Of a stretch of DNA of 64,000 bases, positions 8,330-11,482 are shown piece by piece. Each line of letters opens with the position of its first letter. The first letter of the stretch is position 1. Source of the DNA: Escherichia coli (lineage in GTDB: Bacteria > Pseudomonadota > Gammaproteobacteria > Enterobacterales > Enterobacteriaceae); NCBI RefSeq assembly GCF_017348835.2, contig NZ_CP071375.1, one strand, 5' to 3'. The position numbers and the translations under genes are program-made. The notes under the pieces were generated by a model. The model was not told the DNA's origin. It saw only the letters and a program-made list of their open reading frames with translations, and did not search any database.

Positions 8330-8375
8330 GTGAGGAAGACCGGGCGGGAAACTGCCCGGCCTGAACATACCTGAA

Positions 8376-8513
8376 TGGTTATCCCCGCTGACGCGGGGAA
8401 CATAAGTTCGACAACTTAAAAAATGATAACAAGTCCGGTTTATCCCCGCTGATGCTGGGAACATAATAAAAAATTTAACTAGTTCAGTTTATCCCTGTTT
8501 TTACAAGGAATAT
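8376..8513 (-). CRISPR. Degenerate CRISPR remnant (about 3 decayed type I-E-like repeats; first spacer 32 bp)
   Basis: Repeat-like units at 8376-8403 (tGGTT-ATCCCCGCTGaCGCGGGGAACat), 8436-8464 (CGGTTTATCCCCGCTGatGCtGGGAACat) and a weaker one at 8485-8513; first spacing is exactly 32 bp. Confidence 0.65.
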
Positions 8514-8966
8514 TAACTACACTCGATGTCTTTAGAATAAAAGACAATACGAATCGCACTTTATCAATTTACACTTAAAGTATGAACTGGATATCTTTAT
8601 TCATAAGAACTATTCATCAACAGCGTATAGAGGCGGTTATGTAAAACCACTCATTAGCCTCAAAACAAAGACAAATTTCCAGATTTATTACTTACTCAAT
8701 GAATAACAAGCTTAAAAAATACACTGTCATTCTAAAGAAAAAATTAACAGGCATTAATTAATATTAAAAAAATAATATATTAAAATTTCTTAACGGTTTA
8801 AGGATTATACAAATAACACTTTGATTAAATTTGATTTTTTGTATCGATAATTGTGAACTTATCTGGCATGGGGAACTATTTTGAACATAAGGTGTTACGT
8901 GGATATGTTGCTTATTACAAGTACTGCTAATATAAAAACTTGAGAAAGAGATAACGGGTTATATGG

Positions 8967-9301
8967 TGGTTTATCCCCGCTGGCGCGGGGAACTCGTACT
9001 GACGGATAAAAATAATATCTTTTGCGGCGGTTTATCCCCGCTGGCACGGGGAACTCGTAGGGAACGAGATTCAGAAACGCCGCCCGGTTCGGTTTATCCC
9101 CGCTGGCGCGGGGAACTCTGCCGAACCGCGTTTTGTATTTGCACGGTACTCGGTTTATCCCCGCTGGCGCGGGGAACTCCACTCTTCATCCTCCAAATCA
9201 GCAACCGCGTCCGGTTTATCCCCGCTGGCGCGGGGAACTCATGCGCCGCAGTGTTGCAAAAGAGTTACAGCACGGTTTATCCCCGCTGGCGCGGGGAACT
9301 C
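8967..9301 (-). CRISPR. CRISPR array, type I-E repeat, 6 repeats / 5 spacers
   Basis: 29-bp repeats CGGTTTATCCCCGCTGGCGCGGGGAACTC (reverse complement of the canonical E. coli I-E repeat) at 8967, 9028, 9090, 9151, 9212, 9273; spacers 32, 33, 32, 32, 32 bp. Repeat 1 has T at position 1 and repeat 2 has GCACGG for GCGCGG. Confidence 0.97.
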
Positions 9302-9480
9302 TCTAAACATAACCTATTATTAATTAATGATTTTTTAAGCCAGTCACAATCTACCAACTTTACAGTATCACACAAACAACACATCCATTATGTTAAAGAG
9401 CACTTAACCCATTGATTAAAAAGGTAAATATTTAAAATAACTCTATACAAACTAAAATCTACCAAACTTTACCGCAATAA
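9302..9480 (-). promoter_or_regulatory. Putative CRISPR leader (AT-rich) adjacent to the intact-repeat end of the array
   Basis: About 180 bp of strongly AT-rich sequence directly flanking repeat 6; the degenerate repeat is at the opposite end, consistent with leader-proximal acquisition and minus-strand transcription. Confidence 0.5.
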
Positions 9481-9639
9481 TTTTCACTCCAGCGAAAAAT
9501 TAACGCCACAGAATTTGTCGAGAATGATAATGATTAGTTCAGGATGGGCAAAATGGAGGTTTTTCAGAGGCGACAAAGAATATAAATGAGTAGAAGTCTT
9601 TACAGGTTCCACCCATTTATAACGCTTATAAATGTTTAA

Positions 9640-10311
9640 TCAGGCAATATTTAGATATTTATGTGTTTGCATCGACAAACGCCAATTACGCGCAATGCAG
9701 GTTTCAATGCACAAACGTGTGGCATCATCCTTTTGGCTAATCGGCTGCAGTGCAATGACTCGCGGTTTATCATCGGTCAGCGTCGCCAAAAGTTCATCCA
9801 GTGCTTCAATATCACGTACGCGTCCCACTGGATGCTTGATTTCGTTGGCTCGCTCCAGTGCCTGTGACAACACTTCATAGCCGCCGCGCATGTTCAGCTT
9901 TGGCGATACGGTAACCCAGGTATTCGGTGTACAGCGTACTTCATGAGTACCACTGGTTTCGATCTGGCAGCTAAAACCGTTCTTTTCGAGCAGGTCAGTC
10001 AGTGGCAGCAAATCATGAATGCAAGGCTCACCACCCGTAATCACCACATGCCGCGCGGTATATCCCTGGCGACCAATGACAGCCAGCAAGTCTTCACTGC
10101 TCGCCGCCCCCCACTTATCACTCTCTTTGGTCTTCGCCAGAATGCTGAAAAGGGAGACTTCCCGATCCTCAAGCTTTTCCCAGGTGTGTTTGGTGTCGCA
10201 CCAGGCACAGCCAACCGGGCATCCCTGTAAACGAATAAAAATGGCGGGGACGCCGGTAAAGTAACCCTCACCTTGCAGGGTCTGGAACATCTCGTTAATC
10301 GGGTACTGCAT
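9640..10311 (-). CDS. queE: 7-carboxy-7-deazaguanine synthase (radical SAM, queuosine biosynthesis)
   Basis: 223-aa ORF MQYPINEMFQTLQGEGYFTGVPAIFIRLQGCPVGCAWCDTKHTW; CxxxCxxC-type radical SAM cluster motif. Confidence 0.95.
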   Translation of the reverse strand: MQYPINEMFQTLQGEGYFTGVPAIFIRLQGCPVGCAWCDTKHTWEKLEDREVSLFSILAKTKESDKWGAASSEDLLAVIGRQGYTARHVVITGGEPCIHDLLPLTDLLEKNGFSCQIETSGTHEVRCTPNTWVTVSPKLNMRGGYEVLSQALERANEIKHPVGRVRDIEALDELLATLTDDKPRVIALQPISQKDDATRLCIETCIARNWRLSMQTHKYLNIA

Positions 10312-10449
10312 AGCATTCTCTGTGAAGTGGATAATTGTTAATTATTGCAGATCCTGCCGCAACAATCATGTCTTATTAACATTCTGTTACATGCAGATTT
10401 AAAGAAAAATGCGAAACATATCGTTAATAATTAAAGGGAGTAACGTATT

Positions 10450-10590
10450 ATGTCAGAAGAAAATAAAGAAAATGGATTTAATCATGTCAAAATATTCACC
10501 AGAATTATATTTATTTTTTCTGTATTAGTTTTTAATGATAACGAATCTAAAATTACCTATGCCGCCGTCAATTTATTTATCCAGATTTAA
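10450..10590 (+). CDS. yqcG: Small protein, 46 aa ([46 protein letters not shown])
   Basis: Not in ORF track (below length cutoff); ATG at 10450 preceded by AAAGGGAG about 7 nt upstream; length and position between queE and ygcG match my recollection of yqcG (symbol assignment uncertain). Confidence 0.5.
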
Positions 10591-10603
10591 TGAGAAATTT
10601 ATA

Positions 10604-11473
10604 ATGCGCTATTTCATACTAATGTTCACTTTCGTGTGTTCCTTTGTTGCAGCCCAACCAACTATTTTCCCACAATTACAGCAACAAGTTACGGATCTTA
10701 CGAGTAACTTAAACTCACAAGAAAAGAAAGAACTGACGCACAAGTTAGAATCTATTTTCAATAATACCCAAGTGCAAATTGCTGTATTAATTGTTCCCAC
10801 AACCAAAGACGAGACAATTGAACAATATGCTACAAGAGTTTTTGACAATTGGCGTTTAGGAGATGCCAAACGTAATGATGGGATACTGATCATTGTTGCC
10901 TGGTCGGATCGTACTGTCCGCATCCAGGTAGGTTATGGGCTGGAAGAAAAGGTAACCGATGCTCTGGCTGGAGATATCATCCGTAGCAACATGATACCCG
11001 CATTTAAACAACAAAAATTAGCTCAGGGATTAGAGCTAGCTATAAACGCTTTGAATAACCAACTCACTTCACAACACCAATATCCGGCTAATCCTTCAGA
11101 AAGTGAATCAGCGTCTTCCAGTGATCATTATTACTTTGCTATTTTTTGGGTATTTGCAGTGATGTTCTTCCCTTTCTGTTTTTTTCATCAAGGCAGTAAT
11201 TTTTGTCGCGCATGTAAAAGTGGAGTCTGTATTTCAGCAATCTATCTTTTAGATTTATTCCTGTTCTCCGATAAAACTTTTTCCATTGCTGTATTTTCCT
11301 TCTTTTTTACTTTCACCATATTTATGGTCTTTACCTGTTTATGTGTACTTCAGAAAAGAGCATCTGGTAGAAGTTATCATTCAGACAACAGCGGTTCCGC
11401 TGGAGGCTCAGGCGGCGGGTTTAGCGGCGGTGGCGGTTCTTCTGGCGGTGGCGGCGCATCCGGCCGCTGGTAA
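10604..11473 (+). CDS. ygcG: TPM-domain membrane protein with Phe-rich hydrophobic segment and Gly-rich C-terminal tail
   Basis: ORF 10535..11473; start placed at [11 protein letters not shown]... (signal-peptide-like N-terminus). AT-rich relative to neighbours. Confidence 0.8.
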
Positions 11474-11482
11474 CTCAACCAT

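Follow-up and report, generated by a model that had tools for sequence, protein, structure and literature searches.

An AT-rich block around queE in Escherichia coli: CRISPR-II, a divergent control region and a putative remnant of a lemA-TPM cassette

We analysed positions 8330-11480 of a 64,000-nucleotide stretch of Escherichia coli DNA (hereafter the window). This region lies between ygcE and eno and holds, from left to right, two CRISPR elements, the gene queE, a 46-codon open reading frame (ORF) that corresponds to yqcG, and the gene ygcG, which encodes a protein with a TPM domain. An earlier note had described the region as one block rich in adenine and thymine (AT-rich) that was either horizontally acquired or fast-evolving. 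E. coli strain PE164 has a 100% identical region in its chromosome, and 5425 of the 5426 complete E. coli genomes searched match at least part of it. Annotation was taken from the record of the identical PE164 sequence made by the Prokaryotic Genome Annotation Pipeline (PGAP) and was converted to window coordinates (Table 1). It agrees with the gene content given in the earlier note, namely ygcE, a CRISPR array, queE, an ORF of 46 amino acids, ygcG and eno.

Table 1 Features of the ygcE-eno region. Coordinates are those of the window. GC denotes the content of guanine plus cytosine, GC3 the GC at third codon positions and CAI the codon adaptation index.
Feature	Coordinates	Strand	GC (%)	Remarks
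ygcE, left flank	6851-8329	+	49.4	FGGY-family carbohydrate kinase; PGAP; Pfam FGGY_N/FGGY_C
CRISPR2.2	8375-8513	-	38 (8372-8513)	Degenerate remnant; three decayed type I-E repeats, 72%, 81% and 63% identical to the reference repeat
AT-rich gap	8514-8963	no strand	27.6	Approximately 0.45 kb between CRISPR2.2 and CRISPR2.3
CRISPR2.3	8967-9301	-	58.9 (also for 8964-9301)	Array of six 29-nt repeats and five spacers
CRISPR2.3 leader	9302-9639	-	30.8	Includes the DNA downstream of queE
queE	9640-10311	-	51.5	7-carboxy-7-deazaguanine synthase; GC3 55%
queE / yqcG-ygcG divergent promoter region	10312-10449	no strand	31.9	From composition and alignment
yqcG-like ORF	10450-10590	+	24.1	46 codons; PGAP "hypothetical protein" here, yqcG in other strains
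ygcG	10604-11473	+	41.1	289 amino acids; GC3 35.4%
ygcG Gly/Ser tail	11361-11473		62.8	
Conserved right end	11395-11532	no strand		Gly/Ser-tail coding DNA, stop codon and convergent terminator hairpin
eno, right flank	11533-12831	-	50.6	Enolase; CAI 0.84

The GC content of the region is 41.1%, compared with 50.8% in the window, and no other block of its size in the window is as low. Only 0.7% of 3151-bp windows reach such a value, every one of them overlaps the region, and the lowest non-overlapping one has 46.0%. These values and those of the flanking core genes in Table 1 bear out the claim that the stretch is far more AT-rich than ygcE and eno, as well as the statement that queE is the exception inside it. 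The description as a single AT-rich block holds only in part, as the low GC is patchy. The AT-rich non-coding pieces, including the DNA on both sides of the CRISPR2.3 array, lie at 24-32%, whereas the array itself is rich in GC and the Gly/Ser tail of ygcG has 63-74% GC. ygcG is AT-rich, as had been stated: its GC (z = -3.9) and GC3 (z = -3.8) are both the lowest among the 44 intact annotated genes of the window, and its likelihood under the pooled synonymous codon usage of these genes is also the lowest (z = -2.7). The GC at second codon positions (GC2) is normal, and the soluble TPM part has 40% GC and 36% GC3. When the comparison is widened to 152 ORFs (150 amino acids or longer) taken from 214 kb of this genome, ygcG ranks at the 5th percentile of GC and the 2.6th percentile of GC3; among the ORFs below it are the prophage-adjacent effector genes nleB2/nleF and, within a fimbrial cluster, a hypothetical gene. 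The GC check that the earlier note had proposed thus places ygcG outside the normal range of both GC and synonymous usage.

The left half of the block is the published CRISPR-II locus of the type I-E system. This locus has been described between ygcE and ygcF (queE) as consisting of CRISPR2.2 and CRISPR2.3, 0.5 kb apart, and the leader adjoining CRISPR2.3 as similar across all strains (PMC3903273). In the window, the six copies of the CRISPR2.3 repeat are 88-100% identical to the reference copy and have a regular spacing of 61-62 nt, and the array at 8967-9301 is annotated as CRISPR in the identical record. Since the repeat appears as its reverse complement on the plus strand, the array would be transcribed on the minus strand, with the leader from 9302 onward; the AT-rich DNA at 9302-9639 directly adjoins the last and best-conserved repeat end of CRISPR2.3. 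CRISPR leaders are known as AT-rich non-coding sequences (PMC2886076). As leaders are AT-rich by nature, the AT-richness of the CRISPR half is what leader and promoter DNA normally shows. The locus is similar to CRISPR-II of K-12 in its flanking genes, its 29-nt type I-E repeat, the distance of approximately 0.5 kb between the arrays and the AT-rich leader on the queE side, but differs from it in having CRISPR2.2 cut down to three decayed repeats. Its spacer content is unlike that of the other strains examined. Compared to strain KSC64, identity within the array is 67% versus 92-100% in the other parts, and the divergence of approximately 5% of the whole region from other strains arises mostly because the spacers differ. 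From the K-12 map, we take the cas-E genes to be located at the iap-cysH locus; there are no cas genes among the annotated genes of the window, which extend from ygcR to recB. A scan of positions 8000-11800 against Rfam (E <= 0.01) gave no match, and hence neither RNA-family support for the repeats nor a small RNA. On the other side of these arrays, queE is a core gene found in 5421 of the 5426 genomes, with lineage-specific DNA on both of its sides in E. coli. In strains GN03590 and AVS0096, a LacI-family regulator adjoins queE in place of CRISPR-II and ygcE.

The AT-richness of the locus and its tie to foreign-gene predictions have already been published. "Promoter islands" that are bound by H-NS in chromatin immunoprecipitation (ChIP) studies were reported for K-12 at ygcE/queE and at queE/ygcG (Panyukov & Ozoline 2013, PMC3661553). 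Both are inside genomic islands predicted by GIST, and the queE/ygcG island is linked to genes that three methods predict to be foreign (PMC3661553). Judging from its position after ygcE, the gap at 8514-8963 probably corresponds to the ygcE/queE island. Further K-12 reports describe PhoP binding at two segments of 300 bp upstream of queE and a strong rise of queE expression on deletion of yqcG (PMC4974570), and a ChIP peak of sigma-S has been located at queE/ygcG (PMC4447067). The AT-rich patches of the window resemble the K-12 promoter islands in their two intergenic positions, in the genes beside them and in being AT-rich; they differ in belonging to another strain and in that a simple sigma-70 scan shows no surplus of promoter-like sites here.

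The right half of the block is occupied by the 46-codon ORF and ygcG. YgcG has a TPM domain (PF04536, E = 3.4e-37, 127.7 bits against a cut-off of 22.1) at residues 29-152, covering positions 1-124 of the 125 of the profile. The domain is preceded by a signal peptide and followed by three hydrophobic, Phe/Cys-rich segments (residues ~176-248) and a Gly/Ser tail that ends in GRW, which confirms the TPM domain, the unusual hydrophobic segment and the tail that had been recognised by eye. Of the 97 residues of the membrane segment, 19 are Phe and 6 are Cys, compared with 5 Phe and 1 Cys in the paralogue TPM3 (see below), and its coding DNA has 34% GC and 29% GC3. NCBIfam offered no YgcG-specific model; its models Psb32 (TPM proteins) and MamQ (LemA) matched below their cut-offs. 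With TLP18.3, Psb32, MOLO-1 and the bacterial YgcG family, the protein shares the full-length PF04536 domain, and its similarity to the Psb32 model is weak. The literature describes the YgcG family as one of unknown function (PMC10091555), and for TPM domains a phosphatase and a chaperone of membrane-complex assembly are competing hypotheses (PMC11237479). From hydropathy and the positive-inside rule, we predict that YgcG is exported via its signal peptide, with the TPM domain in the periplasm and anchored by three membrane helices; the cytoplasmic side would hold the Gly/Ser tail and the stretch rich in Lys and Arg that follows the final helix. An ORF of 312 amino acids at 10535-11473 was considered as the true ygcG and rejected, as the start at 10604 is the annotated one and agrees with the signal peptides in the alignment of the paralogues.

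In order to follow the right half across the species, parts of the queE-eno interval were searched separately against the 5,426 genomes. Full-length ygcG was found in 3932 of them, lemA in 1451 and a second (middle) TPM gene in 1103. In approximately 1500 genomes, annotated with "LemA family protein", the queE-ygcG spacer matches over its first 206 bp only, at 81-84% identity. The species is split into a short form with yqcG and ygcG (~72%), to which this window and K-12 belong, and a long form with lemA and two or three TPM genes (~27%). The long form of O157:H7 and of the B2 strain APEC O1 consists of four genes in 3.8 kb with 45% GC: lemA (~200 amino acids) and then TPM genes of ~297, ~382 and ~300 amino acids (TPM1, TPM2 and TPM3 below), the first of which is shortened to 224 amino acids in the O157:H7 strain. 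Elements of the insertion sequence (IS) IS1 recur in the interval and disrupt it in a few strains. Several strains have IS1A between queE and ygcG, and in strain 2273-PO3, where IS1 is present, ygcG is reduced to its last 186 bp.

Outside the species, we scanned one genome per bacterial species with two exact peptide motifs, which diverged homologues could escape. lemA and TPM genes at the queE-eno site were found in E. albertii, E. whittamii, two further Escherichia species, the E. coli representative and Entomohabitans teleogrylli, and in all relatives of this list the queE-eno interval holds an intact lemA together with two to four TPM genes. A lemA-TPM pair of Erwinia persicina is at another location, and the remaining matches are distant and include Burkholderiales and Bacteroidota. 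The absence of the cassette was checked directly in four non-Escherichia genomes only: the QueE neighbourhoods of one Salmonella, one Klebsiella, one Atlantibacter and one further enterobacterial genome contain no lemA or TPM gene, and the gene order there is eno, sometimes an epimerase or other genes, and then queE-queD-cysJIH. The cassette is thus lineage-specific at the eno-queE junction. In the genomes covered, its distribution is patchy, which bears on the comparison of presence and absence across Enterobacteriaceae that the earlier note had proposed. For Escherichia, the long form is more likely than the short form to be ancestral, with the polarity taken from outgroups and not from a tree. 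A simple recent deletion of the long form was considered as the origin of the short form and rejected, as the body of ygcG is only 66-71% identical to TPM3. The interval in the window occupies the same chromosomal site as the lemA-TPM cassettes of O157:H7, B2 strains, E. albertii and E. whittamii and has ends homologous to theirs, and the proteins have in common the signal peptide, the TPM domain, the membrane helices and the conserved end of the tail. In contrast to these cassettes, the window lacks the body of lemA and has a single TPM gene. YgcG is 41% identical to its long-form counterpart at the amino acid level, the GC of the gene is 41% against 47-48%, and its membrane region is rich in Phe and Cys where that of the counterpart is rich in Leu, Ile and Val.

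The homology to the long form extends into yqcG. Positions 10312-10561 of the window align with the start of a long form (positions 3415-3662 of locus L009; 250 nt). The first ~80 bp beside queE are nearly identical between the two forms and the remainder is 70-80% identical; over the 76 positions that begin with the lemA start codon, 52 are identical (z = 7.5), a score reached by 0 of 2000 shuffles. Residues 13-38 of YqcG align with residues 2-26 of LemA, FRIFIVIIFIFNLSGCGYNDIQTYD, which are its signal-peptide end, and the lipobox LSGC is lost in YqcG. A deletion of 1 nt just after the lemA ATG brings the signal-peptide codons in frame with an upstream ATG, which in the long form is stopped after two codons (ATG TTT TAA). 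The 46-codon ORF is not conserved across the short-form strains: it is intact in the window, K-12 and KSC64 and frameshifted in ECE204, STLEFF_47 and GN03590. Its product here is 93.5% identical to YqcG of KSC64 (three substitutions), and a count from the printed sequences gives three substitutions to YqcG of K-12 too; PGAP names the K-12 protein a cell envelope stress response protein and the one here a hypothetical protein. The product has no Pfam or NCBIfam match and hence no match to the LemA domain model. As only the N-terminal signal-peptide region and the upstream DNA are homologous to lemA, yqcG would be a relic and not a member of the LemA family. From these alignments, it appears to be the 5' stump of lemA, still an open frame in part of the species. 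We lean towards the view that yqcG is the orphaned signal-peptide end of a LemA lipoprotein, that the K-12-type arrangement is a natural reduction of the four-gene module and that ygcG occurs in E. coli only. An internal deletion of lemA with preserved ends was also considered and is not claimed here. The match of positions 10562-10601, which separate the lemA homology from the ygcG start codon, to the 3' end of lemA is marginal (P about 0.015-0.02), and these 40 nt have a better chance match elsewhere in the cassette.

All TPM paralogues, including YgcG, share one architecture and an invariant C-terminal motif, and YgcG keeps every residue that is invariant among them. Its amino acid identity is 41% to the third TPM protein and 36-43% to the first. 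Nucleotide identity to the long form is 91-94% in the final ~140 bp of the interval (tail, stop and terminator), 71% in the core of ygcG and 66% at its 5' end, and the closest match of the 5' end is TPM3. There are also chimeric genes, with a 5' quarter of the TPM3 type, a remainder of the ygcG type and the crossover at a conserved box. In strain AVS0096 the chimera stands directly after TPM2, in place of TPM3, while in locus L009 it follows an intact TPM3. Clusters of the protein database at 81-83% identity, several of which occur on 1000 or more contigs, are probably of this chimeric type. The chimeras indicate that TPM paralogues and alleles recombine, and the alignments suggest that ygcG is a very divergent allele of TPM3, the last TPM gene. 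Across the paralogues, the DNA coding for the Gly/Ser tail (11395-11473) is 83-94% identical, compared with 66-71% or less in the bodies, and all TPM proteins end in SGRW or similar. This conservation of the tail points to gene conversion or strong selection. Downstream of it, a GC-rich hairpin with a 10-bp stem and T-runs on both sides is found at 11487-11510, between the convergent ygcG and eno. It has the appearance of a bidirectional terminator used by both genes and is inside the segment conserved in the short and long forms.

We compared substitution rates among five strains. The nonsynonymous rate (dN) of ygcG is 0.012-0.034, its synonymous rate (dS) 0.02-0.13 and dN/dS 0.25-0.63, and the gene is frameshifted in one strain. 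The corresponding values are 0.008 or less, 0.03-0.29 and 0.04 or less for queE, and 0, 0.02-0.05 and 0 for eno. As the dS of ygcG is no higher than that of queE, the term fast-evolving applies to the YgcG protein and not to its DNA, and it denotes relaxed protein constraint instead of a mutation hotspot. ygcG is under relaxed constraint. The replacement of Leu, Ile and Val by Phe in the membrane segment would be the pattern expected from AT-biased drift in a tolerant region, and the loss of the presumed partner LemA in the short form would fit such a relaxation.

We consider it quite probable that the block is a composite around the core gene queE, with CRISPR-II on one side and, on the other, a divergent control region and a reduced lemA-TPM cassette. 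In an Escherichia ancestor, the queE-eno interval would have held lemA and, after it, two to four TPM genes, and in the majority of E. coli, this strain and K-12 among them, the cassette may have been reduced to a 5' lemA stump and the single, highly divergent TPM gene ygcG. The low GC of the yqcG/ygcG part may then come from DNA that never matched the composition of the host, together with relaxed constraint and AT-biased drift. The AT-rich non-coding patches would serve as the leader and promoter of CRISPR2.3 and as the control region of the divergent queE and yqcG-ygcG. By analogy with the K-12 ChIP data, these patches may be coated by H-NS, which would keep the promoters of CRISPR2.3 and ygcG largely silent, and PhoP and sigma-S input may be expected on the queE side in this strain. 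The suggestion of horizontally acquired or fast-evolving DNA can be retained for the yqcG/ygcG part, but not for the CRISPR arrays and queE, and neither a donor nor a mobile vector was found. Acquisition of the yqcG/ygcG part is favoured by its synonymous-site composition, the lineage-specific cassette and the polymorphic site. Of the features by which genomic islands are recognised, the part shows atypical composition and codon usage (with a CAI that is not atypical) and a patchy distribution at a conserved junction; its annotation shows no mobility signature, and no donor could be identified. In the search of cluster representatives described below, ygcG-type sequence is confined to E. coli.

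Several observations weigh against the composite reading. An exhaustive search of 1.84 billion cluster representatives returned the YgcG cluster and its fragments, with the next full-length matches at 46% identity or less and none between 46% and 82%; a word-indexed protein search had been filled up by variants from E. coli. Matches to real plasmids and phages are below 60%, so that none of these carries a close relative of ygcG; the plasmid matches of more than 90% identity to YgcG were rejected as E. coli chromosomes filed as plasmids. The annotation of the interval shows no integrase, tRNA target or flanking direct repeats. As no donor was found, acquisition is inferred from distribution and composition only, and the distribution in turn depends on the reach of the two-motif species scan and of the four-genome check. 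The codon-adaptation analysis that the earlier note had proposed came out divided: the synonymous likelihood of ygcG is the lowest in the window, but its CAI of 0.263 (z = -0.8) is within the range of weakly expressed native genes. The eno score of 0.84 served as a sanity check of the w values used for the CAI, which is the wrong statistic for foreignness here. A simple sigma-70 consensus scan found 11 promoter-like sites versus 8.8 +/- 3.0 in dinucleotide shuffles, which is no excess, and the H-NS, PhoP and sigma-S evidence all comes from K-12, another strain, and would hold here by analogy. As ygcG is intact in ~72% of the genomes and keeps the invariant residues, it is not simply a dead gene. 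Finally, its within-species dS (0.13 or less) is too small for a protein divergence of 59% from TPM3 to have arisen by steady change. The ygcG lineage may possibly have come from an unsampled donor, from an old extra paralogue or from a burst of divergence.

An explanation independent of gene origin is that the AT-richness is purely functional or compositional, with leaders and promoters on the one hand and, on the other, a ygcG that is AT-rich because it encodes a membrane protein rich in Phe, Ile, Leu, Asn and Lys. The non-coding parts are indeed leaders and promoter DNA, the membrane segment of YgcG is 20% Phe, the residues Phe, Tyr, Met, Ile, Asn and Lys (FYMINK) make up 29% of the protein, and the CAI is normal. 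However, GC3 is low as well, even in the soluble TPM part, paralogues of the same architecture have 47-48% GC, and the distribution of ygcG is restricted and polymorphic. We therefore regard this explanation as quite unlikely. A recent import of ygcG and yqcG from an AT-rich donor, as a discrete island on a mobile element, appears just as improbable. It would agree with the low GC and atypical codon usage, with the adjacent promoter island that is tied to foreign genes by three methods (PMC3661553) and with the IS1 elements in the queE-eno interval of some strains. Against it stand the absence of any relative above 46% identity outside E. coli among the cluster representatives searched and the lack of a close relative on real plasmids or phages. 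Moreover, ygcG alleles differ by a dS of up to 0.13, an ordinary between-lineage divergence which indicates that the gene is old in the species, and the ends of the interval are homologous to the long form, which argues for allelic replacement or reduction and not for insertion.

The origin of ygcG within the cassette can also be read differently, namely as an old extra paralogue that once stood behind TPM gene three of a five-gene cassette and was kept by the short form and lost by the long forms. Locus L009 lends this some weight, since it has lemA, TPM1, TPM3 and then a gene whose 3' 80% is of the ygcG type (94.5% nucleotide identity), and this extra gene resembles a fifth position with its 5' end converted by the neighbour. 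The chimera of AVS0096, in contrast, follows TPM2 and replaces TPM3, which fits allelism, TPM3 is the closest match to the 5' end of ygcG, and an intact TPM3 together with an unconverted ygcG occurs in none of the genomes seen. We consider an extra paralogue possible but doubtful, and ygcG as a divergent allele of TPM3 remains the reading that we prefer.

Some observations were made elsewhere in the window. mazF, the toxin gene of mazEF (15646-15981), ranks second from the bottom in GC3 among the window genes (0.382, z = -3.25), and its synonymous-codon likelihood is low as well (z = -2.2), with mazE and mazG normal. A milder low-GC patch is found at 4000-6000, where ygcW has 45.4% GC (z = -2.3) and 500-bp windows fall to 38% around the ygcW-yqcE intergenic region. 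The transporter gene yqcE (major facilitator superfamily, 5620-6824) is a frameshifted pseudogene in this strain and intact in KSC64, with ~73 alignment gap columns between the two near 6200-6300. In the PE164 record, the galactarate/glucarate transporter gene gudP (~25638-28304) is annotated as interrupted by an IS3-family element, with the IS coding sequence at ~26504-27716 and a frameshifted transposase. The window and the PE164 record differ by a 1-bp indel somewhere in ~25000-28000, as well as in rlmD (~18589-19890) and csdA (~49500-50750). Three tandem tRNA-Met genes are located at 53590-53886 in the amiC-mltA interval, as annotated in the PE164 record.

What the block itself shows was already known for this E. 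coli locus, which has been studied very well. The reading of yqcG as a lemA relic and the 72%/27% split between the two forms were not found in the literature searched, and we regard them as small new observations of modest weight. If yqcG is such a relic, a named small protein of K-12 bears on how small ORFs arise. The reading also matters for the phenotype of the yqcG deletion on queE, as this deletion removes promoter-proximal AT-rich DNA and not only a protein. The split between yqcG with ygcG and lemA with TPM genes is a natural contrast for studying LemA/TPM envelope modules, and, if our reading is true, the species would offer a ready contrast of presence and absence for the role of LemA-TPM modules.

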